Program-made: the position numbers and the translations under genes
NCBI GenBank assembly: GCA_046728035.1
Contig: JBKPDT010000160.1
Span: 1-48,093 of the forward strand
From: Candidatus Methylomirabilota bacterium
GTDB lineage: Bacteria > Methylomirabilota > Methylomirabilia > Rokubacteriales > CSP1-6
Direction: 5' to 3'
Length of the DNA stretch: 48,093 nt
Shown: positions 10,998 to 31,723 of the stretch, piece after piece
How positions within the stretch are numbered: position 1 is the stretch's first letter
Layout: each line of letters opens with the position of its first letter
Notes under the pieces: model-generated
What the model was told of the DNA's origin: nothing
Seen by the model: only the letters and a program-made list of their open reading frames with translations
The model's database searches: none

Positions 10998-11806
10998 GGC
11001 TGCGCGGCGTCGCCCACGTGCACTCGACTTACTCGTACGATGGGTGCCATTCCCTCGCCGACCTGGCGGCCTTCTTTCGCGCCGAGGGCCTGGACTTCGT
11101 CCTCATGAGCGAGCACAACCGCGGCCTGTCGGATGCCATCATGGCGAAGCTCGCGGCCGAGTGCGCGGCGCTGTCGGACGCCCGCCTCCTCGTCGTCCCG
11201 GGACTCGAGTGTGAGGCGACGCCGGACTGGGTGCATGTCCTCGGCTACAACGTCAGCAGGTTGATCACCGCCCGTGAGGCCCCCGCCATCCTCGCGGCGA
11301 TCCGCGGCGCGGGCGGCTTCGCCGCGCTCGCCCATCCCCACTACCGGGACGCCTCCGCGCTCGTGGACCCGGGGACGTTGGCCGGCCTGCAGGGGTGGGA
11401 GGTATGGAATGGCAAGGCGGATGGAGGGCACGCTCCCCAGGCCAAGAGCCTGGATGTCTACGCGGAGCTGCGCCGGACCCAGCCACGGCTCATGCCGCTC
11501 GGGGGGGCCGACCTGCACCGGCTGGAGAGCTATCCCGGCATCTGTCTCGAGGTGGACGGCGCCGAGCGCACCGCCGGCGCCATCCTCTCCGCCCTGTCGG
11601 CCGGGACATACCGGGTGACAGGACGCGGCTTCGCCTTCTCGGCCGGAGAGCGCCTCGTCGGCTCGATGGTGCCCTCGAGCGGGTCGGCCGCGGGCATTCT
11701 GCGCACGCTCAAGCGCGGCGCGCAGCGACTCGACCGCCGCTTCGCGCGGGCCGGGCTCCGCATGCCAGAGTCGGTGTATCGCCTGATGCGGAGGCTCCTG
11801 CGGTGA
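10994..11806 (+). CDS. PHP-domain metal-dependent phosphoesterase
   Basis: ATG 10994 overlaps the upstream TGA (ATGA). Has 'GVAHVHSTYSYDGCHSLADLAAFFRAEGLDFVLMSEHN' (HxH ... EH PHP motifs) and 'ALAHPH'. Confidence 0.7.
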   Translation: MRLRGVAHVHSTYSYDGCHSLADLAAFFRAEGLDFVLMSEHNRGLSDAIMAKLAAECAALSDARLLVVPGLECEATPDWVHVLGYNVSRLITAREAPAILAAIRGAGGFAALAHPHYRDASALVDPGTLAGLQGWEVWNGKADGGHAPQAKSLDVYAELRRTQPRLMPLGGADLHRLESYPGICLEVDGAERTAGAILSALSAGTYRVTGRGFAFSAGERLVGSMVPSSGSAAGILRTLKRGAQRLDRRFARAGLRMPESVYRLMRRLLR

Positions 11807-12831
11807 CCGCCCCATTGAACGTCTCGACGTCCGCCCCGCCACAGTGGTCCGCGCTCCGGCCGGTCCCCTTTCAGTCGGAAGGGTTCGGGACTGCCATGGG
11901 CACCATGGGCTACCGCCCCCTGTACCTCCATGACGGCGCGCGCTGCGCCCTCGCTCTCGTGCGGGGGGCCCTGCCGGGGCTCGGCAATCTCACCGCCCGC
12001 GCCAATGTCTTCCTCGACGGGGCCGACGCGGCGTTCACGGCGGCCGCGCTCGGTGCCCTCGCCCGGCGCGGGATTCCCTACGTGAAGGTGGGGGACACCA
12101 TGTCCGGCGTGGCGTGGGAGTCGCTGCCGGCTGGCTGGGCCTTCGGCCACACGCGCATGATCCGGCGCCATACCTTCGTGCTCGACCTCACGCAATCCGA
12201 GGCCGCCCTGCTCAAAGCCATGGACGGGGCCGAGCGCAAGATTCGCAAGGCCGACCGCGAGGGCGTCGAGGTGCGCCCCGTCCAGTCCCGCGAGGAGCTG
12301 GCCGCCTATTGCCGGCTGTCGCGCGACACCTCGGAGCGCGTGCGCGCGCGCTCGGCGTACACCGACTTCCCCGACCGCTTCTTCGAGGATCTCTACCGCC
12401 TGCTCGGTGCCCAGGGCATCGCGCGCTTCTACGTCGCCTGGCACAAGGACGAACCCCTCGCCGGGTGCCTCTTCACGTGCTCGGACTCGACCATGCTCTA
12501 CTACCTGGGTGGTTCCACGCGCGACCGCGAGCTCACCGCCAAGCAGGCGCCCGCCGCGGTGTTCTGGCACGCGATCCGCGAGGCCAAGCGACTCGGCCTG
12601 TCGCGGTTCGACCTGGGCGGCTGCACGCCGACCGAGGATCCCCACGATCCGCGCCACGGAGTCTATACGTTCAAGAAGCGGTGGGGTGGTCGGCTCGAGA
12701 CGTTCTACAATCTCGATGTGGTGCTTTCGAGCATCCCCTACTATCTCCAGGAGCGCGTGCTCTCGCCGGTGTGGGACCGGGTCCATCCTTTGTACTTCCG
12801 GCTGATGGACGCCATGCGGTCGGCGCGATGA
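11803..12831 (+). CDS. FemAB-like (GNAT-fold, aminoacyl-tRNA-dependent transferase family) protein, PEP-CTERM-system-associated type
   Basis: GTG 11803 overlaps the upstream TGA (GTGA). Has 'FYVAWHKDEPLAGCLFTCSDSTMLYYLGGSTRDRELTAKQAPAAVFWHAIREAKRLGLSRFDLGG' and 'VYTFKKRWGG', as in FemAB/MurM-type peptide-bridge transferases. Confidence 0.75.
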   Translation: MTAPLNVSTSAPPQWSALRPVPFQSEGFGTAMGTMGYRPLYLHDGARCALALVRGALPGLGNLTARANVFLDGADAAFTAAALGALARRGIPYVKVGDTMSGVAWESLPAGWAFGHTRMIRRHTFVLDLTQSEAALLKAMDGAERKIRKADREGVEVRPVQSREELAAYCRLSRDTSERVRARSAYTDFPDRFFEDLYRLLGAQGIARFYVAWHKDEPLAGCLFTCSDSTMLYYLGGSTRDRELTAKQAPAAVFWHAIREAKRLGLSRFDLGGCTPTEDPHDPRHGVYTFKKRWGGRLETFYNLDVVLSSIPYYLQERVLSPVWDRVHPLYFRLMDAMRSAR

Positions 12832-14936
12832 CCTCCATGCCCGCGGTCGTGATGCTCCTTGCGGTGGCGAGCTGCCTGGTCCTCGCCGGCACCGCGCTCC
12901 TGCCCCGCTCGCGCGGCGGCGCGCGCTGGGGCTTCGCGCTGGGCATGCTGGGCCTCGCCCTCGAGACCGCGGCGAGCTGGGGCCTGCTCACCCTGACCGA
13001 CGACAGCGAGGGGCGGCAGCTCTACCTGCGGGCCTGGGCGGTGGCCGGCCTCGTCGCCCTGGTGCCGTGGGGCTATTTCATCGTGTCCCTCGGGTCGGGC
13101 GGGGGCCGATCCTCGCCCCGCCCGATCCGCCTCGCTCTCGCCGCTGGGAGCGTGGCCCTCCTGGCCGCCGCCGCCGCCGTGATCACCCTCCCCGCGTTCC
13201 AGATCACCGACGTCCCCGGCCCCTTCTACGCGGCGAGGCTGGAGTCTGTAGGTCGATGGGCGATCGTGCTCCAGGTGCTCGCCACCGCCGCGCTCCTGGG
13301 CGGGCTGGAGGCCTGCCTGCGGACGTCCAAGAGCGAGACGCGCTGGCGCATCAAGTATCTGGTGCTGGGGCTGGGCGGCGTCTTCCTCATGCGCTTCTTC
13401 CTCCTGAGCCAGATCCTCCTCTTCCAGGTCGTGATGGCGGTCTACCTCACCACCACCGCCGCCGCCCTTTTCCTCGGCAACCTGCTCGTGGGCGGCTCGC
13501 TCCTGCGCGAGCGGCTCCTGCTCGCCGAGGTCACGGTCTCGCGACGGGTCGTGTACCGGTCGGTCGTGGTCGGCGTGCTCGGCGTCTACCTCCTCGTGGT
13601 GGGCGCGCTGGGCTGGCTGCTGAGCCACCTCGGGATCCCCGAGGAGCTGTTCTGGGGCTCGCTGGTGGTCTTCGTCACCGCCATCGCGCTCGCCGCCATC
13701 CTGTTCTCCGAGAACGTGCGCTGGCGCTTCAAGCGCTTCATCGGCTTCCACTTCTACCGGAACAAGTACGACTATCGCGAGCAGTGGACCAGCTTCACCC
13801 GTCGGCTCGGGCCGCTGCCGTCGGAGGGAGATCTCGTGCGCGCGGTGCTCGAGGCGGTCACCGAGGCCGCGGGGGCGGCGCGCGCCGTGCTCTACCTGGT
13901 CGACGCGCGCGACGGGCAGTATCATCGGGCGGGCGCCGTGGAAGCCGACCGCGCTCCCGCCGTGCTGGCCCCGGGTCATCCCCTCATCCGCCGGCTCGAG
14001 TCCGCGGCGAGCGCCACCGTCGTCGGCGGGGCGGAGACGGAGGAGCCCGGGTCCGACAGCCGGAGCCTCGCCACCCAGTTCGCCGAGGGATCGGCGGCGG
14101 TGGCGCTGCGGTGGCGCGACCGTATCACCGGCGTCATGCTGATCGGGCCCGAGCGGACGGGCGCCCAGTACCACGCCGAGGACCTCGAGTTCCTCTCCAC
14201 GGCGGCCGACCAGGCGGCGGGCGCCGTCGTCACTGCCCAGATGTCGGAGCGCCTGGCGCAGGCGCGCGAGTTCGAGGCCTTTCACCGCCTGACATCCTTC
14301 GTGATCCACGACCTCAAGAACTCCATCTCCGCGCTCTCACTCCTCAGTCAGAACGCCCTCGAGCACTTCGACGACCCCGAATTCCAGCGTGACGCCCTGC
14401 GCACCCTGTCCCGCACGGTGGAGCGGATGCAGGGGCTCCTCGGGCGACTCTCGGCGGCCCCCGAGGCGGCGGAGCTGCGCCCCCAGCCGGTGGACCTCGC
14501 CGCCGTCGCGCTGGAGGCGACCAGGCCGGTGGGAGGGGGACGCGTGCAGCTCGTCAAGGAGCTCGCGCCGCTCCCGCCCGTCCCCGCCGACCCGGACGCC
14601 CTCCTCAGGGTGCTCCAGAATCTCGTGACCAATGCCGTCGAATCGGTGAAGGGCGAGGGGACCGTGACGATCCGCACCCACGAGTCCGAAGGGTGGGCGG
14701 TGTGCACGGTCACCGACACCGGCGGGGGGATGCCCGCGGAGTTCATCAAGACCGCGCTCTTCGTTCCGTTCCGCTCCACGAAGAAGGGCGGATGGGGCAT
14801 CGGTCTCTACCAGGCCAAGGGCATCGTCGAGGCACACGGCGGACGCATCGAGGTCACCAGCACCGTCGGCCGCGGCACGACCTTCACGGTGCGGCTGCCC
14901 ATCGAGCCGCATACTCCCGAGAGATCAGCCCCATGA
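12828..14936 (+). CDS. prsK: PEP-CTERM system sensor histidine kinase PrsK
   Basis: ATG 12828 overlaps the upstream TGA (ATGA). Has a long polytopic N-terminal region, a GAF-like middle, H-box 'SFVIHDLKNSISALSLL', N-box 'VLQNLVTNAVES', G1 'VTDTGGGMP' and G2 'KKGGWGIGLYQAK'. Confidence 0.8.
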   Translation: MTSMPAVVMLLAVASCLVLAGTALLPRSRGGARWGFALGMLGLALETAASWGLLTLTDDSEGRQLYLRAWAVAGLVALVPWGYFIVSLGSGGGRSSPRPIRLALAAGSVALLAAAAAVITLPAFQITDVPGPFYAARLESVGRWAIVLQVLATAALLGGLEACLRTSKSETRWRIKYLVLGLGGVFLMRFFLLSQILLFQVVMAVYLTTTAAALFLGNLLVGGSLLRERLLLAEVTVSRRVVYRSVVVGVLGVYLLVVGALGWLLSHLGIPEELFWGSLVVFVTAIALAAILFSENVRWRFKRFIGFHFYRNKYDYREQWTSFTRRLGPLPSEGDLVRAVLEAVTEAAGAARAVLYLVDARDGQYHRAGAVEADRAPAVLAPGHPLIRRLESAASATVVGGAETEEPGSDSRSLATQFAEGSAAVALRWRDRITGVMLIGPERTGAQYHAEDLEFLSTAADQAAGAVVTAQMSERLAQAREFEAFHRLTSFVIHDLKNSISALSLLSQNALEHFDDPEFQRDALRTLSRTVERMQGLLGRLSAAPEAAELRPQPVDLAAVALEATRPVGGGRVQLVKELAPLPPVPADPDALLRVLQNLVTNAVESVKGEGTVTIRTHESEGWAVCTVTDTGGGMPAEFIKTALFVPFRSTKKGGWGIGLYQAKGIVEAHGGRIEVTSTVGRGTTFTVRLPIEPHTPERSAP

Positions 14937-15823
14937 GCGGCAACGCGAACACCACCGACTTGACCGCCGCCCCCGCCGTCTCGGGAGCGGCCGGCGGTCG
15001 GGAGTGGCTGCTCCTGGGCATACCGTTCGCGGCGGCGCTCGTGCTCTACGCGCCGCTGCTCCCCGGCCTCGCCGCCGAGTGGACCGAGTTCCCGAGCCTC
15101 TCGCACGGCTTCGCCATCCCCGTGATCGCCGCCTACCTGGCTTGGACGCGGCGGAACCGACTTCGCGAGACGCCGATCCGGCCCTCCGTCTGGGGCCTGC
15201 CCGTGCTCGTCCTCGGCCTGGGCGCACTCGTGGTGGGGACGCTCGGCGACGAGTCGTTCGTGGCTCGCATCTCGCTGCCCGTGATCCTGTTGGGGCTCAC
15301 CCTCTTCCTGGCCGGCTGGCGGGTCCTGGCGCAGGTGTGGCTGGCCATCGCGTACCTTGCGCTGATGGTCCCCCTGCCCTATTCCACGCTCAAGCAGATC
15401 ACCTACCGCTCGCGGCTCTTCGACGCGGAGGTCTCGGCGTGGGCCCTCGGCGTGCTGGGGGTCCCCGTGCACCAGGATGGCGTCATACTCCATCTGCCGA
15501 ACATCGACCTCGAGGTGGCCGACGCCTGCAGCAGCATCCCCGCGATCGCCGCCCTCCTCTCGCTGGGGGTGGCCTATGCGTTCGTGAGCGGGCGCCCGCG
15601 CGCAGTACAGGTGTTGCTGGTCGCGGCCACGCTGCCGCTGGCCATCACCGCCAACATCATCCGTATCACGAGCGTGTCGTGGCTGGCCTATCAGGTCGGC
15701 CCCTGGACCCTGCAGACGAGCTACCACATGTTCAACGGGACGGTGAACTTCATGTTCACCTTCCTCCTCCTGCTTGCGCTCGACGCCACGCTGGGTAAGG
15801 TCGTGGCGCGGTGGCGGTCATGA
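14933..15823 (+). CDS. Exosortase (EpsH/Xrt family transpeptidase), subtype not assignable by eye
   Basis: ATG 14933 overlaps the upstream TGA (ATGA). It is polytopic and carries the signature residues 'SLSHGFAIP', Cys in 'EVADACSSIPAI', Arg in 'TANIIRITS' and His in 'SYHMFNG'. Confidence 0.85.
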   Translation: MSGNANTTDLTAAPAVSGAAGGREWLLLGIPFAAALVLYAPLLPGLAAEWTEFPSLSHGFAIPVIAAYLAWTRRNRLRETPIRPSVWGLPVLVLGLGALVVGTLGDESFVARISLPVILLGLTLFLAGWRVLAQVWLAIAYLALMVPLPYSTLKQITYRSRLFDAEVSAWALGVLGVPVHQDGVILHLPNIDLEVADACSSIPAIAALLSLGVAYAFVSGRPRAVQVLLVAATLPLAITANIIRITSVSWLAYQVGPWTLQTSYHMFNGTVNFMFTFLLLLALDATLGKVVARWRS

Positions 15824-16467
15824 GCCGCCAGGGCCGGTTCTTCCTCGTCGCAATGGTGCTGCTGGTCACGGCGGGCGCGGCGCTCGCCCTCCCGCGGGGC
15901 GCCCGTGATGTGCCGCTCTTGGCCCCGCTCGAGTCCCTCCCCACCACGCTCGGCGCCTGGCGGCCCGCGGAGCCGGCCGCCGACGAGATACTCCCGCGCG
16001 ACCCGCGGGCGGCCGAGAGTCTGGCGCGCGGGTACACGGACGGAACGCGCACGGCATGGGTCGCCGTCGGCTTCTATCCGAATCAGACCGAAGGCCAGCG
16101 GCCCGCGACGGGAAGGCTAGTCTTCCCCAGCAGCGGCTGGACGGACCTGAGCGAAGAGACGGTCTCGATCCCCGCGTCCGGCGCGGGCGCCTCCGCCCTG
16201 CCCGCGAACCTGGTGCGAGTCCGACGAGGCGACCGGCGCGTCGCGATTCTCTACTGGTACCATCTCCCGGGCGGGACGGTCGGGAGCGATCATGTCTACC
16301 GGGCGAGGCTCCTGTGGAACCGGCTCGCTCACCGCCGGGCCGACGGCGCGCTCGTGCGCGTCGCCATGCCCCTGCCGGCCGACCTGAGCCCGGCGGCGGT
16401 GGTCGCCGAGCAGGCCGAGTTCCTTCGGGTCTTTCTGCCCGAGCTCTCGCGGAGTCTCCCGCGCTAG
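15820..16467 (+). CDS. epsI: EpsI-family exosortase-associated protein
   Basis: ATG 15820 overlaps the upstream TGA (ATGA); GTG 15811 is an alternative start. Has the N-terminal anchor 'GRFFLVAMVLLVTAGAALAL', then 'LPTTLGAWRP', as in EpsI proteins. Confidence 0.7.
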   Translation: MSRQGRFFLVAMVLLVTAGAALALPRGARDVPLLAPLESLPTTLGAWRPAEPAADEILPRDPRAAESLARGYTDGTRTAWVAVGFYPNQTEGQRPATGRLVFPSSGWTDLSEETVSIPASGAGASALPANLVRVRRGDRRVAILYWYHLPGGTVGSDHVYRARLLWNRLAHRRADGALVRVAMPLPADLSPAAVVAEQAEFLRVFLPELSRSLPR

Positions 16468-16493
16468 CCGTCCCCCAGCAGAGGAGCGGATCC

Positions 16494-17858
16494 ATGAGCA
16501 AGCCAAAAGTGATGGTGGTGGATGACGACGAGGGCATCCGGACACAGCTGAAGTACGCCCTTCAGGACGAGTACACGGTGACCCTGGCGGAGGACCGTCC
16601 TCAGGCCCTGGCCCTCCTTCAGGAAGTGCAGCCCGCCGTGGTCAGCCTCGATCTCGGATTGCCGCCCGAGCCCGACGGCGCCGAGGAGGGGTTGAAGACC
16701 CTGGACGAGATCCTCCAGGCGGCGCCGCTCACCAAGGTCATCGTCGTCACCGGCAACAACGACCGCGCCAACGCGCTGCGCGCCATGCAGCTCGGCGCCT
16801 TCGACTACCACCTGAAGCCCATCAACCTTCCAGAGTACAAGGTCGTCGTCCGTCGCGCCGCCTTCCTCAGCGACCTCTCGCGGGAGAGCGAGGCGGCCGC
16901 CCGCACGGACGAGCAGGCCGTTCGCTTCGAGGAGATCATCGGCAAGACCACGCGCATGCGCGAGATCTTCTCGCTGGTCCAGCGCGTGGCCAAGACCGAC
17001 GCCACGGTGCTCATCGAGGGGGAGAGCGGCACGGGCAAGGAGCTGATCGCGCGGGCCATCCACCACCGGAGCACCCGGCGCGACGGCCCGTTCGTCGCCA
17101 TCAACTGCGGGGCGATCCCGGAGACGCTCCTCGAATCCGAGCTGTTCGGCCACGAGCGGGGCGCCTTCACGGGGGCCCATGTCCAGCGCAAGGGCAAGTT
17201 CGAGATGGCCGAGCGGGGCACCCTCTTCCTCGATGAGATCGGAGAGCTCCCGTTGACCCTGCAGGTGAAGATTCTGCGCTTTCTGCAGGAGCGCACGGTG
17301 GAGCGGATCGGCGGCCGCCAGCCGATCGCGGTGGACCTGCGAATCATCGCCGCGACCAACCGCGACTTGAAGGCGCATCTCGAGCGGGGTCTCTTCCGCG
17401 AGGATCTCTACTATCGGCTCTCGGTGGTGCGGGTGGAGGTCCCGCCGCTGCGGGAGCGGGCCGAGGACGTCGTGATTCTCGCCAACGCGTTCCTGAGCCG
17501 CGCGGTCAAGGAGCAGCGGCGATCCGTGCGATTCGGGCCCCGCGCGCTCCAGTCCCTGCTCGCCTATGCCTGGCCGGGTAATGTCCGGGAGCTCGAGAAC
17601 CGGGTGAGCCGGGCCGTCATCATGACCAAGGGCCGGATCATCGAGCCCGCCGACCTGGACCTTGCCGCGGTGGACGCGACCGCCGAGCAGGGGTCGCTGC
17701 GGGAGACTCGCCAGCGGGTGGAGCGGCAGACCCTCGTCGAGGTGCTCAGCCGCAACCGGGGCAACGTCAGCCAGGCCGCGCGCGAGCTGCGGATCAGCCG
17801 GCCGACCCTCCACGGGCTGCTCGACAAGCACGAGATCAACGCCAAAGATTTCCGCTGA
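16494..17858 (+). CDS. prsR: PEP-CTERM-box sigma-54-dependent response regulator PrsR
   Basis: The RBS GAGGAG (16481-16486) lies 7 nt before the ATG. Has REC 'KVMVVDDDEGIR...VVSLDLGLPP', AAA+ 'GESGTGKE', the sigma-54 contact loop 'GAFTGA', and the Fis-type HTH 'NVSQAARELRISRPTLHGLL'. Confidence 0.85.
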   Translation: MSKPKVMVVDDDEGIRTQLKYALQDEYTVTLAEDRPQALALLQEVQPAVVSLDLGLPPEPDGAEEGLKTLDEILQAAPLTKVIVVTGNNDRANALRAMQLGAFDYHLKPINLPEYKVVVRRAAFLSDLSRESEAAARTDEQAVRFEEIIGKTTRMREIFSLVQRVAKTDATVLIEGESGTGKELIARAIHHRSTRRDGPFVAINCGAIPETLLESELFGHERGAFTGAHVQRKGKFEMAERGTLFLDEIGELPLTLQVKILRFLQERTVERIGGRQPIAVDLRIIAATNRDLKAHLERGLFREDLYYRLSVVRVEVPPLRERAEDVVILANAFLSRAVKEQRRSVRFGPRALQSLLAYAWPGNVRELENRVSRAVIMTKGRIIEPADLDLAAVDATAEQGSLRETRQRVERQTLVEVLSRNRGNVSQAARELRISRPTLHGLLDKHEINAKDFR

Positions 17859-17898: not shown

Positions 17899-19137
17899 CT
17901 ACGGGCTGATCGGAAGGGGGCCGGTAGGCCGCTCGACGGCGCCCGCCGTCGGCGGGACGCGACGCGGCGCCCCACTCAGGTCCTCGATGGGCATCCACGG
18001 CTCGACCGCGGAGACCCCGGCCTGCGGCAAGGGGCTCCCCGGCCCCGGCGAGAAGTCGTAGGCGAAGGGATTCTCGAAGCAGACCACGACGCCGCAGTCC
18101 ACGTTGCCCGCCAGGCGCAGGTACCCCTGGGCCGGGGGGAACGGCGCGACGCCGATGGGGGCGTGGGCGGCGTTGTTCACCACGACGCCGTCGAGGGGGC
18201 CGCGCTCGGGCGCCACGATGCCTCCGCCGGCGTTTCCGTAGGCGGTGTTGTGGACGACGATGATCCCGCGGAGCAGTCCGCGCTTGGCGTAGTCCTCGAG
18301 GGCGATACCCGCCTCGCGATTGCCGACGACCACGTTGTTGCGCACGATCACCGGCCCACCGCCAATGACGATGCCGGACGAGCGCTGCGACCCCACCACG
18401 ACGTTGCGCTCGACCACCGAGACGCGGTCGGGCATCCGGGCGCCGTAAACCATGATGCCGGGGCCCTTGGTGTCCACGATCACGTTGTCACGGATGACGC
18501 CCACCGAGTTGAGCTTGACCTGTAGCCCGTAGCCGATCTCGGGGGCGGGCGCGCGGATCCCGCGGATGTGATTGCCCTCCACCAGGAGGTCCGTGACCTC
18601 ACACGTCCGGCCCTCGTGACACCCGAAGTACATGCCCGTCGCCTCCGAGGCGACGATGGTGTTCCGTCGGACGGTGAGTCCCCGGATCGACACGTGCGTC
18701 GCCGCGACGGCGATGCCGCCCAGCCCCTCGAACCGACAGTCCTCGATCGTGATGCCCGCCCGCGAGTGGATCCGGAACCCGTCCACCGCCCGCTGGGTCG
18801 GGCCCAGGTCGAGCCCGCGGAAGGTCACATGGTCGGCGCGCACCGAGAAGACATTGTTGTCCCGCTCGCCATAGACGATGCGCGGCCGGATCTCGGGGAT
18901 CTTCGCGCGAACGACCGACGGCGCCCCCGGCCGCCCCCCGTAATGGACGGTACAGCCCCCCCGATACTCTCCCGGTCGGAGCAGCAGCTCGGCGCCGGGG
19001 GGAAGGGCGTTGATCTCGACGCAGAGGTCCGCCTCGGGCCCGATCTCGTGCGGCTCGGCGGGCGGCTGAGCGTGCGCCGCGGATGCCGCCAGGACGAGTC
19101 CCGTCATCGCCAGCCACGCCAGCCGCGAGGGCGTCAT
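17899..19137 (-). CDS. Secreted right-handed parallel beta-helix repeat protein (pectin-lyase fold; possible glycan lyase, hydrolase or epimerase)
   Basis: Has the signal peptide 'MTPSRLAWLAMTGLVLAASAAHAQP'. Has stacked PbH1-like repeats 'VEGNHIRG', 'IRDNVIVDT', 'VERNVVVGS', 'VRNNVVVGN', 'VHNTAYGN'. The ATG overlaps the stop of the upstream gene (ATGA, 19134-19137). Confidence 0.65.
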   Translation of the reverse strand: MTPSRLAWLAMTGLVLAASAAHAQPPAEPHEIGPEADLCVEINALPPGAELLLRPGEYRGGCTVHYGGRPGAPSVVRAKIPEIRPRIVYGERDNNVFSVRADHVTFRGLDLGPTQRAVDGFRIHSRAGITIEDCRFEGLGGIAVAATHVSIRGLTVRRNTIVASEATGMYFGCHEGRTCEVTDLLVEGNHIRGIRAPAPEIGYGLQVKLNSVGVIRDNVIVDTKGPGIMVYGARMPDRVSVVERNVVVGSQRSSGIVIGGGPVIVRNNVVVGNREAGIALEDYAKRGLLRGIIVVHNTAYGNAGGGIVAPERGPLDGVVVNNAAHAPIGVAPFPPAQGYLRLAGNVDCGVVVCFENPFAYDFSPGPGSPLPQAGVSAVEPWMPIEDLSGAPRRVPPTAGAVERPTGPLPISP

Positions 19138-21056
19138 TCGGCTCGCCCGGTCACCGCGTGCGGTCGCGCGACCAGGTCGCCGAGCCGGACGATGGCCGTC
19201 TCGTAAGCCCCTGTCATCCTGGCTCCCTCGTCCGCGGTGAAGGGCGCCAGGACGGCGTCGTGGGCGGCGCGCGCGTCTCCCTCTCGCCTCACGCCGACCT
19301 TGACCCGGCGGAGCTCATCCGTCTGGAATGCCTCGATGATCGATCGCATCCCCCGATGTCCGCCGTCGCTGCCGCGCATCCGCGTGCGCACCGTCCCCAA
19401 GGGCAAGTCGAGATCGTCGTAGACGACAATGCATTGCGCGTGATCGAAGCCCAGGCGTCTGGCGAGTCGCGAAAGAACGGGGCCGGAGTGATTCACGAAG
19501 GTCATGGGCTTGACGAGGCATACCACCTCACCCTTCCACACCGTCCGCGCCACCTGGGCGTCGGCCGACTGGTCCCATGTCGCGCCGAGGCCGGCGGCGA
19601 GGCGGTCCAGGATCGCGTGACCGACATTGTGTGGAGTCCCCTGGTAGTTCTCACCCGGATTGCCGAGGCCCACGACCACGTGCGCCGGCGCCGACTCCCG
19701 GCTCCCTTCCACCACCACCGGCTCGACGGGCTCGCGAGCCGGCGTTGCCGAAGAGCTCCCATCGGAGGGAATCGTGAGGAGGGAACACGAATCGCAAAAT
19801 CGGTTCCTTCCGCAGTTCGACTGCCAGCATGCCACTCCGCGCGTCCGATCGAGAATGATCCGATAGAGATGATCGGCGATGTTCGAGCCCTTGAGCAGGA
19901 CGAGATCGCCGGGGCGCAAAAACCCTTTGAAGAAGTCGGAGGCGGCCTTGACGGTGCCGATAGCTCGAATGCGCTCGTCCCCCGCGTGCGTCTTGGCACG
20001 CAACGCCGCAGAGGCGCGCGGGCCTACGAAACAGACCAGGTCCGCGGACAGGAGCGCTCGTCGCGCCATGGCGACGTAGATGGCCCCAGCGTCTCCCATC
20101 GTGTCGGCAATGGTGCCGATGACCACCACCTTGCGTGGCGCCTCCGCCTCCCGCATGAAATCGAGTGCCGGCGGGATGGTGTGGACCGAGGCCTTCCAGT
20201 CGTCGCGGATGAAGGTCACGCCATCGGGCAGGGTGACCGGGCTCATGCGACCCGGATAGGGAGGAACCTCGCTCAGGGCCCGCGCGGCGGCATCGAGAGG
20301 AACGCCAAGCGCGAGGCCGACCGCCACGGCGGCGAGCGCCGAAGGCACCCAGTGGCTCCCACAAAGCTGGGTCTGAACGGGGACGCGCTGCTCCTCATGA
20401 GCCAGCGTGAAGGCGAGCCGCCCGGGCCAGGCCGCGGAGATCGACTCGGCGCGGACGTCCGCGTGCGCTTGTACCCCGAAGGTCAGGACGCGACCGCGGA
20501 AGTCCTTCCCCATCGCGAGGACGCGGGAGTCGTCGGCATTGAGGACGGCGACGCCGTCGGAGGGCAACGCGTCGATGAGCTTCCGCTTCTCGGCGGCGAT
20601 ACCCTCGGTCGAGCCATATGCGCTGTAGTGATCGGTCCCGATGTTCGTGACGACGCCGATTTTCGGCCGAAGGAGGGCGAGCGGTCGATCCATGGTCCCC
20701 GGAGCGGGAGCGCCCACCTCCACTACCGCGAACCGATCTCCCTTTCGCACCGTGCAGATCGTGCGCGCGATGTCGGGCAGCTCGTTGGCGGCGCCGCTCT
20801 TGCGCCCGGGCATCCGCGCGGAAAGGACCTGGGCGACGAAATTCTTGGTGCTGGTCTTGCCCGCGCTGCCGGTGACGCCGATGAAGACGACCGATGAGTA
20901 TCTTGACCGGTGACGACCCGCCCAGCGGACGAGGAATCGCATCCACGCCGGTTGGACGAGCCGCGTGTGGATCGCTTCGAGAGGCCATCGCGGATCCGCC
21001 CGGCGGAACGCCTGAGTGAGCCACGCACGGCCGCGATCGACCCCGAAGCGCATCAC
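19134..21056 (-). CDS. Fusion protein: MurF-like Mur-ligase domain + Cys-rich linker + peptidyl-tRNA hydrolase (Pth) domain
   Basis: A single 640-aa ORF with no internal stop. Mur ligase part: 'VVFIGVTGSAGKTSTKNF', 'VVTNIGTDHYSAYGS', 'LLKGSN'. Linker: 'CWQSNCGRNRFCDSC'. Pth part: 'VVVGLGNPGENYQGTPHNVGH', 'TFVNHSG', 'VVYDDLDLPLG', 'GSDGGHRGMRS'. Confidence 0.7.
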   Translation of the reverse strand: MMRFGVDRGRAWLTQAFRRADPRWPLEAIHTRLVQPAWMRFLVRWAGRHRSRYSSVVFIGVTGSAGKTSTKNFVAQVLSARMPGRKSGAANELPDIARTICTVRKGDRFAVVEVGAPAPGTMDRPLALLRPKIGVVTNIGTDHYSAYGSTEGIAAEKRKLIDALPSDGVAVLNADDSRVLAMGKDFRGRVLTFGVQAHADVRAESISAAWPGRLAFTLAHEEQRVPVQTQLCGSHWVPSALAAVAVGLALGVPLDAAARALSEVPPYPGRMSPVTLPDGVTFIRDDWKASVHTIPPALDFMREAEAPRKVVVIGTIADTMGDAGAIYVAMARRALLSADLVCFVGPRASAALRAKTHAGDERIRAIGTVKAASDFFKGFLRPGDLVLLKGSNIADHLYRIILDRTRGVACWQSNCGRNRFCDSCSLLTIPSDGSSSATPAREPVEPVVVEGSRESAPAHVVVGLGNPGENYQGTPHNVGHAILDRLAAGLGATWDQSADAQVARTVWKGEVVCLVKPMTFVNHSGPVLSRLARRLGFDHAQCIVVYDDLDLPLGTVRTRMRGSDGGHRGMRSIIEAFQTDELRRVKVGVRREGDARAAHDAVLAPFTADEGARMTGAYETAIVRLGDLVARPHAVTGRAE

Positions 21057-21165: not shown

Positions 21166-21864
21166 CTAGGCGCTTCCGCTGGCGGCGTGTTCCACGATTT
21201 GCGCATACAAGGCGAACTCGACCTTGGACGCCTGCACGATCGCCTCGTAGTCGTCCTCGCGGCGTACATACGAATTGATGAGGTCCCGCACTTCATTCAT
21301 GTGACCCTGGTCGGCGGCGCCGTGCCTGGCGAGGTAGGTCACCGCCGAGTCCGGGACGCCGAGCATGCCCTTGATGTTTCCCGCCAGCTGGGTCGCGAAG
21401 AGCTGGCTCAACCCTTCGATGACGTATGTGTCCCCGAGTATCCCCATCGGGTTCTCGTGGCCAGCAGTGTAATACATGTACGCGACCAGACAGTCGCAGG
21501 GGACCGACGGTTTGGAGGTTTCGAGGCGCGAAATATCGTACTTCATCGCCTTCAAGTCATCCGCGATCCAGCGGTGGTGACCGTACTCCTCGACGGCGTG
21601 TTCGAGAAGCCACTGACGGATTTCCTCGTCACGAGTACTCACCCGCGTCGCGGCGAGCGCGTACACCTTCGAGCCTTCGCGCACATGGTAGTAAGAGTCG
21701 ACGAGAAACCTCGTGTAGATGCGTCCGATCTCCGCGGCGTCGCCGGCACTGGGCGGTGCGCTGTCACCAGGATCCGTCACCAGTAGGTTGACAAGGGGGA
21801 TCGCCATGAATCGATCCCGCTCGACCTTCGTGGCGCTCTGAAGCCGCTCGTACGTTGTCGCCAT
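21166..21864 (-). CDS. Heme-oxygenase-like di-iron (iron-containing redox enzyme / HDO family) protein
   Basis: ATG 21864 has a GGAGG RBS 8 nt upstream, so the GTG at 21879 is less likely. Helical protein with candidate metal ligands 'DSYYHVREG', 'AVEEYGHHRW' (ExxH), 'YVIEGLSQ' and 'AADQGHMNE' (DxxH). Its GC content is visibly lower than in neighbouring genes. Confidence 0.65.
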   Translation of the reverse strand: MATTYERLQSATKVERDRFMAIPLVNLLVTDPGDSAPPSAGDAAEIGRIYTRFLVDSYYHVREGSKVYALAATRVSTRDEEIRQWLLEHAVEEYGHHRWIADDLKAMKYDISRLETSKPSVPCDCLVAYMYYTAGHENPMGILGDTYVIEGLSQLFATQLAGNIKGMLGVPDSAVTYLARHGAADQGHMNEVRDLINSYVRREDDYEAIVQASKVEFALYAQIVEHAASGSA

Positions 21865-22296
21865 ACCGATGACCTCCACCGTTGAGGTTGATACTGACCG
21901 TGGAATTCGAACGGCGCGACCGACACGCGATCGAGCGTCATCCGTACCCCGGATCGGCCCTCCACCGGTCGGCGCGACGCTCGAGCCACGCCAGGACGGC
22001 AGCGGCTCCGCGTCGTAGGCTGCCGCTGATCACTCGGACCTTCATCAGTGGCCTCTGCCAATATAGCAGGCCCAGTGAGCACAACCCAAAGCCAATTTTC
22101 TGTGTAACCACGCGTCAATGCTGAAACAGTAATGGAGTCAAGAGTTCGACATGCAGGTAAATTGGGCGTCACGCCTGTCCGGGCAACATCTAGGGAGATC
22201 GTGCAACCCCGCGGCCGAATTGTGAGGATCGCTCTTGCGCGCGTGGCCGTCGCGGAGCGAGAATGGTCCACTTCTCGAACGCATGGAGGCGATCAA

Positions 22297-23343: not shown

Positions 23344-24138
23344 TCAACCGCGAGATGGAACGAAGAACTGGAAGACGTCCGGCCGGCTCCCCATCACGAA
23401 TTCCTCGAGCTGGCGGATGCTGGCGTAGTACGGGATGACCTCGCCGTAATAGCTCATTGGTTCGCCGACTTGCCGGAGCCCCAGACCGAACTTCGACAGC
23501 ATGCGCTGAAGGCTACTCTCCATGGCCGCGACCCAGTACTCGAGCCCCATGTTCACGCTCTCCACGTACATCTCCTTGAAGAGGCCGAAGAGGATCAGCG
23601 GGTACTGACTCCGGCGGTAGGTCGCCTCGGCGCGCGCCTGGGCGTCCTTTTCCGGGTCTCCGAGCTCCTGGCCGTAGAGGCCGTCATTGGCGCGGCGCCG
23701 GTAGCTCCTGGCGAGGATCAAGCGCGAGATCTCGGCGGTCTTGTCGCGCGGTAGCCGATGATAGTCCGCGGAGAGGGTTCCCGCGTGCTCCTCTAGAGGA
23801 AAGCCCAGACGGGAGTCTCGCACCAGGCGCAGCGTCGCCACCATCTCCTGCCGCTCATTGGTCGCGGCGAAATGGATCGAGTAGGCGTCGTACTGGTCCG
23901 TCTCGCGCTCGTTGGGATAGCGAGCCGCGTCGAGATACTTGCACTCGAGGCAGTACACGGCGTAGCGGAGCTGCTGCACACTGTCCCAGAGGCCATTGGT
24001 CGCCGCCAGTCGCCTGAAGTCGAAATACCGTCGCGGAAGGCCGCTTCCAGGTTCCGCGGATGGCGTGGATCCGCCGCGGATCTGCGGGACGATTCGACTG
24101 CCCGCGGCCTCGGGAGCGCGGTCTCGTATCGTTCCCAT
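23344..24138 (-). CDS. PEP-CTERM/exosortase-associated acyltransferase (FeeM/LuxI-like N-acyl amino acid synthase family)
   Basis: Has 'LRYAVYCLECKYLDAARYPNERETDQYDAYSIHFAA', 'ATLRLVRDS', 'AEISRLIL' and 'YWVAAMESSLQRMLSKFG', the GNAT-like autoinducer-synthase/FeeM pattern. The start lies 1 nt after the HlyD gene stop. Confidence 0.7.
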   Translation of the reverse strand: MGTIRDRAPEAAGSRIVPQIRGGSTPSAEPGSGLPRRYFDFRRLAATNGLWDSVQQLRYAVYCLECKYLDAARYPNERETDQYDAYSIHFAATNERQEMVATLRLVRDSRLGFPLEEHAGTLSADYHRLPRDKTAEISRLILARSYRRRANDGLYGQELGDPEKDAQARAEATYRRSQYPLILFGLFKEMYVESVNMGLEYWVAAMESSLQRMLSKFGLGLRQVGEPMSYYGEVIPYYASIRQLEEFVMGSRPDVFQFFVPSRG

Positions 24139-27265: not shown

Positions 27266-30200
27266 CTAACCGCCCAGCTCCTTGATGCGGTCGGCGATCT
27301 TCTCCGACTGAGCGAGCTTGGGATCGAGTTGCGCCGCCCGCCGGAGCGAGGACACTGCGTCGTTCTTCTTGCCAAGCTTCGAATACGTCATGCCGAGGTG
27401 ATACTGGACCTGCGCGTTGTTGGGGGCTCGCTCGAGCGCGCGATTGAGCGCCTTCTCCGCCTCGACGTAGGAGCCTCGCCGGTAGTGAACCCAGCCCAGG
27501 GTGTCGGCCACCTCGTACGACCGCGGCGCCAACTGGTCCGCCTTCGCGACCAACGTCAAGGCCTCGTCCGGCCGATTCTTTGCCTCCAGCAGGATCCAGG
27601 CCAGGTTGTTCAGGGTGACTACGTCGTTCGCGTTCAGCGCCAGCACCTTGCGGTACGACTCGATCGCGCGATCTGTCTGCCCCTGAGCCTCCAGCGCCTG
27701 GGCGATGCCGCGATGAGCACCGGGCAGATCCGGACTGATGCGGACGGCCGCCGAGAACGCGTCTCCGGCGCCCCGGTAGTCCTTCCGCGCGAGAAGCACC
27801 GCCCCCTTGAGCATGACGGGCTGGGGGCTCTTCGGGAACGCCTTCTCCAGCTCTTCCGCGATCCGCGCCGCGTCGGCAAGCCTGCCCAGCTGGGCGTAGA
27901 GGCTCCCCACCTCGAACTTGACGTCGGGCAGCGCCGGGTTGACGCGGAGCGCGGCCTCGAGGTGCCGGAGCCCTTCCTCGCGCTGCCCCTGGCTGATCAG
28001 ATAGCGCCCGAGCCCGGCGTTGGCCTCCATGCTCTTCGGATTCCCGCGCAGGGCCGCCCGCAGATAGACCGCCGCGTCGTCGGCCTTCCCCTGGCGCAGC
28101 CGGATGCGGGCCATCTGGAGATTCGCCTCGAGGTGAGTCGGAGCCTGGTCGAGGATGGCCTTCAGATGCGACTCCGCCCCCGCCACGTCGCCGGAGTTCA
28201 GGAGCGCGATCGCGAGCGCCTCCCGAAGGGCGGCGCTCTTCGGAGCCTTCTCCACTGCCGCGCGGAGCGACGCGATGCGCTTCCCCAGCTCGGCTGGATC
28301 CGGCTTCTGCCCGGACAGGGCGGCGAGGTCCCGCTTGGCCGCGGCGAGCCCGGGATTCAGCTTGAGCGCCTCGCGGTAGGCCGCCTGCGCCTCGGGCACC
28401 CGCCCCAGGGTGGCATAGCTCTGGCCGAGCAGGTAGTGGGCGGTGGCGTCCTTGGGGGCGGCACGGACGAACGCGGTCAGCTCCTTGACAGCGGAGTGCC
28501 CGTCGCGCTTGCCGAGGTACGCGCGTGCGCGGATGAGCGCGGCCCCCGTGAGCTCCGGACTCTGGGTCAGGATCTGCGTCGCGCGCGCGAGGGCATCGTC
28601 GTATCGGCCGGTGCGGAGGTAAAGCTCGGCGAGCTCCAGGGCCAGCGCGGGTTGCCCCGGCGCGACCTTCAGCGAGCCTTCGACGGTCGCGATGGCTTGC
28701 TCGTACCGTCCCGAACGCTCGGCGAGGCCGGTCTGGAGCAGCACCGCCGTGGGATGATCGGGGCGATCCTTCAGCACCGCCTGGAGGTGACCGACCGCCT
28801 CCTCGTCTTTGCCCTGGATCAGCGCGACGCGGGCGAGCCCCAGGCGCGGCTCCGGCGCCTTCGGGGTCAGCTTGAGCGCCTGGTGGTAGACGTCCTTCGC
28901 CTTCTCGAACTGTCGATCCAGGATGAAGAGCGTCGCGAGCATCGACTGAAAGCCGGAGACCGTGGGCTCCGCCTTGGCGGTGGCCTCCGCGAACTGGATG
29001 GCCTCCTTGATCTTCTTCTGCTTCACGAGCGCGGCGATCTTGGCGCGCGCCGCCGCCACCGATTTCGGATCCGCCTTCACCGCCTCGTCGAATTCCTTGA
29101 TCGCGCCCGCGAGGTCGTCCTCGGCGGCCCGAAGCCGGCCCATCGCGACGTGGGCGGCGGCAAAGGTCGCGTCGACTTCCGCCGCCTTCGCGTAGTGCTC
29201 GTGCGCGGCCTTCGCATTCCCTTGCTTGGCGCGAATCTGCCCCATCAGCAGGTAGGCCTGGGGCGACCGCGGGTCGAGCGCCGCGGCGGCTCCGGCGGAC
29301 TTGAAGGCATCGTCGAGCCGGCCCGTCACGAAAAGCGCCCGGCCCCTCTCCAGGTGGAACAGGGGGACTTTCTCGAGCGGCTTGGCCATGCCGTCGAGGA
29401 GGGCGAGCGACTCCCGGACGCGCCCCGCCCGGGAGTAGGCCTGGGCCAGATAGAACTGCGCGGCGCCGTCGCGAGGCTCCTGCCTGCGCAGCTCCTCGAG
29501 ATGCGTGATCGCGAGCTGGGGGCGATTGCCAGCGAGGTAGGCGCGGGCGAGGAGGAACCGGGCGGGGCGGTAGTTGGGCGCGCGCTCGACGATCGCGACC
29601 AGCAGAGCGCTGGCATTGGCCGGCTGGCCTGCCTGCAGGTAGTAGCTGGACAGCGCGAGGATCAGCCGCGGGGTGCGCGCGCGCACCTCGACCGACTCGA
29701 GGATCTTGATGGCTGCGGCCATCTGACCTTGCCCCGCGGCGGCCGCGGCGAGTCCGAGCGGAATCTCGCTGTTGGCGGGCTGAACGCCCTTGGCCTGGCT
29801 GAAGACCTTCTCCGCCTCCGCGAACTCGCGCCGCTGGAGATGGAACTTGCCGAGGCCGATCAGGCTCCGGACGTCCCTGGGGTTCTCCTTGACGGCCGCC
29901 CGGTACGCCTCTTCCGCCGCCGCCGTCTTCCCGAGCCGCGTCAGCGCCTGAGCGCGGAGCGGCGCGGTCTCCCCCGGAATGCTCTGCCCAGCCTGGTTGA
30001 CGCGGTCCAGGATCGCGAGCGCCTCCTCGGCCTTGCCCTCGCCCAACAGGGCGGCGGCCCGGATATGCAGGCCGACCGCGTTCTGCGGCTCGCGCGACAG
30101 GATGAGCGCGGCTTGCTTCTCGGCGTCCGCGAACAGTCCTCCCTCGACGAAGGCTCGTCCGAGGTCGCTCGCAATCGGGAGGGAGTCCGGCGCGCCCTTC

Positions 30201-31647: not shown

Positions 31648-31723
31648 TGGTGGACGATACTGGACTTGAACCAGTGACCCCCGGCATGTGAGGCCGGTGC
31701 TCTGCCAACTGAGCTAATCGTCC
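31648..31723 (-). tRNA. tRNA-Val (anticodon CAC), CCA encoded
   Basis: The reverse complement GGACGATTAGCTCAGTTGGCAGAGCACCGGCCTCACATGCCGGGGGTCACTGGTTCAAGTCCAGTATCGTCCACCA folds as a perfect cloverleaf. Acceptor is GGACGAT/ATCGTCC, D stem GCTC/GAGC, anticodon stem CCGGC/GCCGG with loop CTCACAT, and T arm ACTGG-TTCAAGT-CCAGT. Confidence 0.9.

Follow-up and report, generated by a model that had tools for sequence, protein, structure and literature searches.

A single open reading frame joining a Mur-type ligase to a peptidyl-tRNA hydrolase (Pth) was found in the 48,093-nucleotide stretch of DNA analyzed here (the window, from a Candidatus Methylomirabilota bacterium), and we are highly confident that the protein it encodes is truly bifunctional and belongs to a large, as yet uncharacterised family. 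The same high confidence applies to its division into a Mur-type ligase with a basic helical arm in place of the UDP-binding domain 1, a spacer and an intact Pth1 domain, and to the placement of the gene in a PEP-CTERM/exosortase exopolysaccharide locus as a paralog, not as the housekeeping pth. As to function, we regard it as a serious possibility, still somewhat short of probable, that the two domains catalyse consecutive steps of a tRNA-dependent amide ligation resembling that of the PEARL enzymes.

The frame (19134..21056, minus strand) ran without interruption for 640 amino acids in the ORF reading of the window, from a GTG at 21056 to a stop codon at 19134-19136; the public gene call begins at ATG 21053, one codon downstream (639 amino acids), and this ATG is the probable start. 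GC3 was 0.82 in the frame, compared with 0.70 overall. All motifs quoted in a preliminary description of this DNA were present (GVTGSAGKTSTK, TNIGTDH, CWQSNCGRNRFCDSC, GLGNPG, TPHNVG, VNHSG, YDDLDL and GGHRG), and its proposal that one frame holds both a MurF-like ligase and a Pth with an intact active site was borne out by the frame itself, by the domain profiles it had named (PF08245, PF02875 and PF01195, all three detected) and by a database survey. This survey recovered the architecture from independent assemblies, without any stop between the domains, in over 120 clusters when sequences were grouped at 90% identity and in no fewer than 82 representatives when they were grouped at 50%; the fusion is therefore neither an assembly artefact nor a chance event. 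The rarity implied earlier gave way to a large family, already deposited under generic names. A literature search found no paper describing the ligase-Pth family, and the preliminary description likewise knew of no such fusion. Database entries for these proteins are at present named either "aminoacyl-tRNA hydrolase" or "MurF", so that the family is systematically mis-annotated.

In the ligase module, the place of Mur-ligase domain 1 is taken by an N-terminal basic helical arm of about 55 amino acids (20892..21056, minus strand), delimited by profiles and by an AF2 model in which helices span residues 2-19 and 25-51; the median net charge of this arm among fusions was +8.5. A profile search of the fusion for the UDP-binding domain 1 (PF01225) gave no match, and only positions 61-408 of the murF profile TIGR01143 were matched, at 211.8 bits (cut-off 288.6); since this match begins only at position 61, domain 1 is missing. 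The central ATP-binding domain (20319..20876, minus strand; Mur_ligase_M, PF08245, residues 61-246, E 4.7e-33) contains the P-loop GVTGSAGKTSTK, TNIGTDH and AAEK, with G62, S63 and K66 of the P-loop, D141/H142 and E155/K156 free of variation, and MurF was its top match in structure comparison. It is followed by the Mur ligase C-terminal domain (19884..20252, minus strand; PF02875, residues 269-391, E 4e-12, 47 bits against a cut-off of 28), which bears the family motif RDDWKAS. The P-loop, DH, EK, NADD and RDD.K motifs were invariant, and the ligase is predicted to form amide bonds in an ATP-dependent manner through an acyl-phosphate.

The ligase module is capped at its C-terminus by a Cys4 knuckle, CWQSNCGRNRFCDSC (19785..19829, minus strand), a putative zinc site that was invariant in the 104 close members. 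This knuckle had been described as a linker between the two domains, a role that was ruled out, since many stand-alone ligases also have it and end directly after it, and about 45% of fusion representatives, including a divergent subclade, lack the motif; it caps a Mur-ligase subfamily devoid of domain 1. The connection to Pth is made by a variable, flexible spacer rich in Ser, Pro, Glu and Ala (19680..19784, minus strand), recognized by alignment and in the AF2 model, whose sequence is not conserved and whose length ranges from 34 to 49 amino acids across members. Disorder in the AF2 model (pTM 0.88) was confined to this spacer, with pLDDT below 50 at residues 433-445.

The remainder of the protein is a Pth1 domain with a C-terminal tail (19137..19679, minus strand), identified by profiles, alignment and structure match. 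Both Pept_tRNA_hydro (PF01195; residues 460-623, E 2.7e-45, 154.9 bits against a cut-off of 27) and the pth equivalog profile TIGR00447 (147.4 bits against a cut-off of 100) were exceeded. As anticipated in the preliminary description, the catalytic residues Asn10, His20, Asn68 and Asp93 (E. coli numbering, checked against 3vjr/2pth) are retained, in 104 of 104 full-length members. The acceptor-stem residues K103, K105 and R133, whose functional roles have been described (PMC3488237), have basic equivalents: Arg at the first two positions (103/104 each) and Lys at the third (104/104). At the oxyanion-stabilising position 114, alignment to solved Pth structures placed an Arg opposite the Asn of GGHNG, and Arg was found in 95 of 104 members, with some variation. 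The substitution reported earlier is thus real, but it is not the peculiarity it was taken for, as the housekeeping Pth of T. thermophilus uses a functional Arg103 at the same site (PMC11994314). The fused domain is predicted to hydrolyse N-blocked aminoacyl-tRNA. Recruitment of Pth for an ester not borne by tRNA, such as one linking an aminoacyl or peptidyl group to a nucleotide sugar or to a lipid-linked intermediate, would suit the polysaccharide locus, the paralogous clade and the variation at position 114; we consider it very unlikely given the retention of all catalytic residues and of the K103/K105/R133-equivalent patch in at least 103 of 104 members, together with the score above the pth equivalog cut-off.

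Pth is usually viewed as a stand-alone housekeeping enzyme. The domain studied here departs from that gene of about 190 amino acids in being fused and in lying within an exopolysaccharide locus. In a neighbour-joining tree, built without support values, the fusion Pth domains formed one clade apart from housekeeping Pth and sister to stand-alone Pth of Methylomirabilota; Pth domains from proteobacterial fusions shared 42-48% identity with the latter but only 26-32% with E. coli Pth. A GGGAG motif 15 nt upstream of an internal GTG makes internal initiation possible, and a housekeeping Pth translated separately from that codon, or a frameshift or assembly error, might account for the frame in trivial terms. 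Such an origin is extremely improbable in view of the single frame running across a non-conserved spacer in the representatives surveyed, of the separate clade, of the stand-alone canonical Pths encoded in genomes of the same phylum, Methylomirabilota, and of a PrsK/PrsR-regulated locus that is not a housekeeping setting.

The PEP-CTERM/exosortase nature of this locus had been overlooked in the preliminary description. Its core (12828..17858, plus strand) encodes the histidine kinase PrsK, the exosortase EpsH, EpsI and the sigma-54 regulator PrsR, and on the minus strand are the XrtA/PEP-CTERM system TPR lipoprotein PrsT (27266..30490; TIGR02917, 414 bits against a cut-off of 312) and a FeeM-like PEP-CTERM/exosortase system-associated acyltransferase (23344..24138; TIGR03694, 186 bits against a cut-off of 112). 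PrsK, PrsR, PrsT, EpsH and EpsI all scored above the curated NCBIfam cut-offs, and the exosortase subtype (XrtA or XrtW) in the window scored under the subtype-specific ones. Directly upstream of the fusion lies a haem-oxygenase-like gene (Haem_oxygenas_2; 21166..21879, minus strand), conserved in locus L085, and downstream a secreted right-handed beta-helix protein (17899..19137, minus strand), found in the same arrangement in L002 and L085, whose start overlaps the fusion stop (ATGA), so that the two are probably translationally coupled. A possible PEP-CTERM cargo protein in the locus is a GDSL lipase, whose tail, consisting of VPSPP, a transmembrane helix and RARR, matched PEP-CTERM-type tails only, and weakly (E 0.1-2). 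The same or XrtA accessory sets were present in loci L002, L003, L005, L085, L086 and L087. Markers specific to PEP-CTERM/exosortase systems occurred in seven of 12 fusion loci, Wzx/AsnB-like flanks were shared by two further loci, and three of the 12 had no exosortase markers.

A second group of plus-strand genes (9783..12831) encodes an ATP-grasp protein (ATPgrasp_Ter), a CehA/McbA-like metallohydrolase and a FemAB-like/Acetyltransf_6 protein. The FemAB-like neighbour noted previously at about 6 kb does exist (11803-12831, about 6.3 kb from the fusion), as a weak match (TIGR03019, 34 bits against a cut-off of 260), but it is not a conserved partner, for no FemAB-like gene was found within 10 kb of the fusion in the syntenic loci L002, L085 and L086. 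Pth is known to cleave N-acetylated aminoacyl-tRNA produced by GNAT toxins. An accessory recycling role could be envisaged along these lines, with the ligase taking free amino acids and Pth rescuing tRNAs trapped as N-blocked aminoacyl-tRNA, side products of FemAB-like (tRNA-dependent) or GNAT acyltransferases upon induction of the locus; the fusion would then serve co-expression or co-localisation only. The FemAB-like and FeeM-like acyltransferases of the window, the flexible and variable spacer, and ligase-only relatives that work without Pth beside FemAB-like and GNAT genes are consistent with this role. We nevertheless find it doubtful: three syntenic loci lack the FemAB-like gene, the housekeeping Pth already supplies the service, and Pth was joined to the ligase in both orders and never, in our sample, to FemAB-like or GNAT enzymes. 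Moreover, a single Pth per locus would be enough, yet old tandem paralogs each retain one.

Those tandem paralogs share just 59% identity. One protein has the order ligase-ligase-Pth, and independent reverse-order Pth-ligase fusions were nested among ligase-only relatives; on sequence evidence, the ligase module has acquired Pth on at least two occasions, once per end. Together with the pTM of the AF2 model, these arrangements argue for functional coupling of the domains. The ligase-only relatives belong to polysaccharide operons that also contain FemAB-like, GNAT, ATP-grasp, Wzx and UDP-sugar 6-dehydrogenase genes, and GNAT-ligase and ligase-ATP-grasp fusions and operons were also found. The domains might also act with Pth first, freeing the acid from an N-acyl-aminoacyl- or peptidyl-tRNA made by another enzyme (FemAB-like, GNAT or ATP-grasp), after which the ligase would activate the freed carboxylate and couple it to an amine on a polysaccharide precursor. 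A free carboxylate, as released by Pth, is what Mur ligases typically act on, and both fusion orders, as well as the GNAT and ATP-grasp associations, fit such a sequence. It would, however, be wasteful of energy, since ATP would be spent on re-activating an acid that had just been released from an activated ester by hydrolysis; a different substrate source would be needed for ligase-only relatives, and no partner enzyme was conserved across loci. We therefore judge it unlikely.

That a polysaccharide or surface-protein pathway proceeds through a peptidyl- or N-acyl-aminoacyl-tRNA intermediate is strongly supported by genomic evidence, namely by a catalytically intact Pth paralog that has settled in a biosynthetic role and is found attached to either end of one ligase module. 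Both ideas put forward in the preliminary description, that N-blocked aminoacyl-tRNA is released and that the ligase works on a substrate carried by tRNA, survive as plausible and merge into the PEARL-like model. For all substrates, for the use of aminoacyl-tRNA by the ligase and for the link to the exosortase, what follows is what we infer. The ligase domain would use ATP to phosphorylate a carboxylate, whose probable carrier is either a growing peptide side chain or a polysaccharide precursor linked to a lipid or sugar, in the latter case as a uronic or muramic-type acid; the acyl-phosphate would then be attacked by an aminoacyl-tRNA through its alpha-amine. The resulting N-acyl-aminoacyl-tRNA, a canonical Pth substrate, would have its ester cleaved in cis by the fused Pth, yielding free tRNA and a new carboxylate that may be open to extension by another ligase-Pth paralog, by an ATP-grasp enzyme or by a FemAB-like enzyme. 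Just as sortase uses the lipid II peptide, exosortase could take such an amino-acid or peptide decoration as its acceptor.

Several observations weigh against the PEARL-like model. To our knowledge, the characterised Mur ligases all work on free amino acids, peptides or ammonia. The many close ligase-only relatives, even beside FemAB-like genes, imply that Pth is dispensable for the ligase chemistry unless the housekeeping Pth acts in trans; the long flexible spacer is equally compatible with mere co-localisation; and, besides the three loci devoid of exosortase markers, no dedicated tRNA gene was found near the fusion at any locus. More tentatively still, the family may be an unrecognised class of tRNA-dependent amide ligases, with aminoacyl-tRNA as nucleophile and a built-in Pth, convergent with PEARLs though made of other folds, whose product, an amino-acid or peptide decoration on an exopolysaccharide or a lipid-linked precursor, would be the long-sought exosortase acceptor for the anchoring of PEP-CTERM proteins. 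The PEP-CTERM/exosortase system, described in 2006, is important for the formation of flocs and biofilms, be it in soils, in sediments or in activated sludge. The fusion family hints at a new tRNA-dependent route joining amino acids to cell-surface polymers; if the PEARL-like model is true, it would offer a concrete candidate for the building of that acceptor, add tRNA-bound amines to the substrates of Mur ligases, and show that tRNA-dependent amide-bond formation outside the ribosome has been solved a second time on an unrelated structural basis.

Among known systems, MurF was the best match of the fusion by sequence (1gg4, 8f5d) and by structure (4qf5, 3zl8; TM 0.73-0.75), sharing the central ATP-binding and C-terminal domains, the P-loop, DH and EK, whose Lys aligns with a MurF Lys. 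The fusion differs in the basic helical arm replacing domain 1, in RDDWKAS replacing DDSYNAN, in the C-terminal Cys4 cap, in the fused Pth, in a murF score below the cut-off, and in its polysaccharide/exosortase locus instead of the dcw cluster. The Pth domain is complete and resembles Pth1 of E. coli (2pth/3vjr) and T. thermophilus (structural TM 0.86-0.92), with the Arg of the latter at position 114, but it belongs to a paralogous clade in regulated polysaccharide loci and was duplicated along with the ligase. MurT, of the MurT/GatD lipid II amidotransferase, is likewise a Mur homolog with central and C-terminal domains only; its substrate is lipid-linked and without uridine, and the loss of domain 1 runs parallel in both. 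Both also have a Cys4 element, which in MurT is zinc-ribbon-like, aids binding of the partner enzyme and is inserted in the central domain, whereas that of the fusion is a C-terminal cap; the MurT partner is a separate glutaminase, and sequence similarity between MurT and the fusion is weak (20 bits). At the system level, a Mur-type ligase, a FemAB-like and an ATP-grasp protein beside an exosortase recall FemXAB/MurM, MurC-F and sortase, where the peptidoglycan stem or bridge is the sorting acceptor; the analogy need not extend to a peptidoglycan-like peptide as product, and the FemAB-like gene here is a weak match that is not conserved across loci. In PEARLs, finally, a carboxylate is phosphorylated and condensed with aminoacyl-tRNA, and the tRNA ester is then hydrolysed (PMC11962472). 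The fusion was ruled out as a member of that family, as no domains beyond Mur ligase and Pth were detected in it. PEARLs (such as TglB and BhaB) have a LanB-like fold with an ATP-grasp-like site, unrelated to that of the fusion, act on RiPP scaffold peptides and achieve release without a separate Pth domain, unlike what is suggested here, so that the overall chemistry is proposed to be the same by analogy while the protein performing it would be different.

The open reading frame at 19134-21056 on the reverse strand encodes 640 aa if a GTG start is used, and 639 aa in the public gene call, which begins at an ATG one codon downstream. Both the translation of this frame and the gene call upheld the preliminary description of an uninterrupted fusion of a Mur-type ligase to a peptidyl-tRNA hydrolase (Pth), and all the motifs quoted there were found in the protein. 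The HMM searches it had proposed matched all three Pfam domains: Mur_ligase_M (residues 61-246, E 4.7e-33), Mur_ligase_C (residues 269-391, E 4e-12) and Pept_tRNA_hydro (residues 460-623, E 2.7e-45). Against NCBIfam models, the C-terminal part exceeded the cut-off of the pth equivalog (147 bits, cut-off 100), and the N-terminal part scored highest with murF, under the cut-off of that model (212 bits, cut-off 289). The fusion protein is neither MurF proper nor a housekeeping Pth. Since the murF profile matched only from position 61 on, Mur-ligase domain 1 is missing; AF2 predicted a pair of long helices where it would be (residues 2-19 and 25-51), and this N-terminal arm was strongly basic (median net charge +8.5 in fusions, against +7 among ligase-only relatives). 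The AF2 model of the whole fusion (mean pLDDT 90.9, pTM 0.88), with disorder confined to residues 433-445, suggests that the domains are held in a defined arrangement. Third-position GC was 0.82 in the fusion ORF vs. 0.70 in the window.

A search of 5.8 billion proteins recovered more than 120 clusters (90% identity) that carry all three Pfam domains of the fusion; they originate from JGI, ENA, NCBI and Logan assemblies, with identities as low as 47%. Among the best 150 matches of a profile search against 1.84 billion 50%-identity representatives, BLAST-based domain mapping assigned the ligase-Pth order to 82, the Pth-ligase order to 2 and a ligase free of Pth to 64, and the rarity previously attributed to the fusion does not agree with these counts. 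The inter-domain spacer (34-49 aa) was unconserved among members, yet stop-free in every one, and the fusion was kept across independent assemblies, for which reason a frameshift or assembly error was rejected. That the fusion is an artefact, or that a housekeeping Pth is translated separately, is extremely improbable. These proteins are named ‘aminoacyl-tRNA hydrolase’ or ‘MurF’ in databases. As had been anticipated, no description of a Mur-ligase/Pth fusion was found in the full-text literature, and the architecture is missing both from a 2026 review of aminoacyl-tRNA-dependent enzymes and from the founding PEP-CTERM paper. A DNA-motif scan for RxRxRGxDGGHRG mostly returned chance matches in GC-rich genomes (98 of 120). 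The unnamed family to which the fusion belongs is large, and its bifunctional enzymes are associated chiefly with PEP-CTERM/exosortase polysaccharide loci. Complete MAGs with fusions include CAVYTA01, GCA_035281625.1, GCA_018899585.1 and Propionivibrio NZ_JASGGX01.

Using as reference the E. coli Pth sequence, identical to that of PDB 3vjr/2pth, the catalytic residues N10, H20, N68 and D93 were kept in 104 of 104 members, and at least 103 of them retained the acceptor-stem patch K103/K105/R133, in the form R/R/K. These residues serve in acceptor-stem phosphate binding and oxyanion stabilisation (PMC3488237). Because both sets are retained, the fused domain appears fully competent as a tRNA-ester hydrolase. 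Position 114 was Arg in 95 of 104 members and Asn in none; Arg is native and functional at this position in Pth from Thermus thermophilus (PMC11994314), so that the Asn114 to Arg change, previously singled out as a special feature, cannot be taken to indicate that function is altered or lost. Action of the domain on a non-tRNA ester is disfavoured by the conserved acceptor-stem patch and seems very unlikely.

Methylomirabilota genomes carry ordinary stand-alone Pths with the GGHNG motif. In a neighbour-joining tree built without support values, the fusion Pth domains, among them the ones of Alpha-, Beta- and Gammaproteobacteria, formed one clade, sister to these stand-alone Pths, and the proteobacterial fusion domains shared 42-48% identity with Methylomirabilota Pth and only 26-32% with that of E. 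coli. Both the clade and the identities argue that the fused Pth is something other than the native housekeeping gene, and the pattern is compatible with a fusion that arose once and then spread horizontally. The reverse order, Pth-ligase, was found in four clusters, with catalytic residues kept, R or K at position 114 and the Cys4 cap at the extreme C-terminus; proteins P0328, P0370 and P0389-P0391 and loci L288-L290, all outside the window, show this order. The contigs around the permuted proteins were too short or uninformative to reveal a genomic context, and a further candidate, L009, was discarded because no Pth domain was found in it. These proteins nest among ligase-only proteins (60-67% identity in the ligase part) and appear to represent an independent, rare fusion of the same two modules. 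Two tandem fusions were present in each of the loci L003 and L086, and the tandem paralogs P0026 and P0028, only 59% identical, both retained Pth. A Pth at either end of the ligase, kept in both old duplicates, is the strongest evidence that the two activities share one pathway intermediate. In L006 (Propionivibrio), a second ligase-Pth copy was detected as several tblastn pieces at about 18090-19320 (reverse strand), some 6 kb from the intact fusion, and looks like a decaying paralog. The ligase module was also found, outside the window, joined to a second ligase copy (ligase-ligase-Pth), GNAT, a circularly permuted ATP-grasp, a GT51 transglycosylase or HD/DUF6817 (P0363, P0360, P0375, P0347, P0241 and P0242).

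The nearest solved relative of the ligase, both by sequence and by fold (TM 0.73-0.75), is MurF, from which it differs in carrying ‘RDDWKAS’ in the place of the ‘DDSYNAN’ motif. This R283-D284-D285-K287 motif was invariant in the 94 members compared, as were G62/S63/K66 (P-loop), D141-H142, E155-K156 and N172/D174/D175. The Cys4 motif (CW-x3-C-x5-C-x2-C) was present in 104 of 104 close full-length members, and had been regarded as a linker between domains. This role was ruled out, since the stand-alone ligases of L010-L013 and L015-L019 (about 405-475 aa, 37-47% identical to the ligase part) stop 10-25 residues past Cys4, and the motif is wholly missing from a divergent fusion subclade, to which Microvirga L007 (the cultured M. 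calopogonii CCBAU 65841) and L282 belong and which makes up 37 of the 82 fusion representatives. A parallel is provided by MurT, a Mur-ligase homolog that also lacks domain 1 and has a Cys-rich element; its substrate is lipid II, and its zinc-ribbon-like element forms part of the partner-enzyme interface. The fusion to a GT51 peptidoglycan transglycosylase hints at a lipid-II-like substrate for the ligase module.

Near the fusion, PrsK, PrsR, exosortase, EpsI, an exosortase-associated acyltransferase and PrsT were assigned above curated NCBIfam cut-offs, and the start of a gene for a secreted beta-helix protein overlaps the fusion stop codon (ATGA). The ATP-grasp, metallohydrolase and weakly FemAB-like genes lie farther from the fusion than PrsK and are probably a sub-operon upstream of prsK; a FemAB-like neighbour does exist, as proposed, and its partnership with the fusion was not supported. 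The metallohydrolase gene (CehA/McbA-like, PHP-type; 10994-11806, forward strand) is located between the other two, with overlapping gene ends. The gene next upstream of the fusion, also on the reverse strand (21166-21879), encodes a Haem_oxygenas_2 (haem-oxygenase-like) protein, with no NCBIfam assignment and a 77%-identical homolog in the same place in L085; the pathway may rely on it to modify an amino-acid or acyl substrate. A GDSL-family lipase encoded about 1 kb from the fusion (22132-23316, forward strand) ends in ‘VPSPPAGLLLVMGAGLVALIGLRARRSGV’, a P-x-P motif followed by a hydrophobic helix and a basic tail. Its five top NCBIfam matches were all weak hits to PEP-CTERM/MYXO-CTERM tails (E 0.1-2); the tail resembles a PEP-CTERM sorting signal in variant form, with PSP for PEP, and the lipase may be exosortase cargo. 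Tandem AsnB-like genes (1059-2933 and 2937-4835, forward strand; 624 and 632 aa) matched asparagine-synthase and XrtA-amidotransferase models weakly, in the synthetase region only; the fusion of the proteobacterial loci L003, L005, L006 and L287 is likewise flanked by AsnB-like genes. A tRNA-Val(CAC) was confirmed at 31648-31723, about 10.6 kb from the fusion, and the 97-nt tRNA-Arg(CCG) called by ARAGORN at 44703-44799 (reverse strand) had no Rfam support at the gathering threshold and is probably a false positive. No dedicated tRNA gene was detected in 11 related loci.

Twelve distinct fusion loci, including the window, were compared; tblastn with window proteins revealed synteny in close relatives only, and distant loci were examined through Pfam/NCBIfam or L003-derived queries. 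Four loci (window, L002, L085 and L086) shared the EpsH/EpsI/PrsK/PrsR arrangement, three (L003, L005 and L087) the exosortase-A accessory set (hydr1_PEP, hydr2_PEP, ACP and ligase_PEP_1; above cut-offs in L003, by homology in L005 and L087), and two (L006 and L287) Wzx and AsnB-like flanks, and no exosortase markers were found in the remaining three (L007, L008 and L282). Ligase-only genes, too, occurred in polysaccharide operons: in the order ligase, GNAT, FemAB-like, ATP-grasp_Ter, unassigned protein and Wzx (L010 and L015), beside UDP-sugar 6-dehydrogenase, WbpB-like and WbpD-like enzymes and Asn synthase (L012), and, in Hyphomicrobium facile, as the first gene of a cluster of glycosyltransferase and pyruvyl-transferase genes. 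In a Methyloceanibacter MAG (L017, 5515-9217, forward strand), a QueC-like PP-loop ATPase gene is followed by a tandem pair of ligase-only (Cys4) genes; housekeeping genes (eno, pdhAB) surround them, a setting unlike the polysaccharide operons.

Fused domains commonly catalyse consecutive steps. Mur ligases convert a carboxylate and ATP into an acyl-phosphate, which is then attacked by an amine, and N-blocked aminoacyl-tRNA is the substrate that Pth hydrolyses. Both steps become consecutive most simply if the amine belongs to an aminoacyl-tRNA. The ligase domain would form the acyl-phosphate, the aminoacyl-tRNA amine would attack it to yield N-acyl-aminoacyl-tRNA, and the fused Pth would free the tRNA and restore a carboxylate for the next addition. 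The same reaction sequence is established for peptide aminoacyl-tRNA ligases (PEARLs, e.g. TglB and BhaB), although their folds are unrelated (PMC11962472). This PEARL-like ligation, which we favour tentatively, would account for the retention of its own Pth by each paralog, the ligase-ligase-Pth form, the conserved tRNA-binding patch and the loss of the UDP-binding domain. The main evidence against it is the existence of numerous ligase-only relatives, together with the fact that, to our knowledge, no Mur ligase uses aminoacyl-tRNA; that the family constitutes a new class of tRNA-dependent ligase is rather doubtful. A conventional ligase to which Pth is added only for recycling or quality control is less probable than the PEARL-like ligation, and an inverted order, with Pth acting first and releasing the acid used as carboxylate substrate by the ligase, is quite unlikely. 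The earlier interpretation stands in part, with the views on Cys4, Asn114, the FemAB partnership and rarity corrected. Beyond the PEARL-like scheme, the presence of a Mur-type ligase, ATP-grasp, GNAT, a FemAB-like protein and a flippase beside a sortase-like exosortase points to a pathway that makes a decoration of amino acids or peptides, and, more speculatively, one that could serve as an acceptor for the exosortase, as this gene combination resembles the MurC-F/FemXAB/sortase logic.
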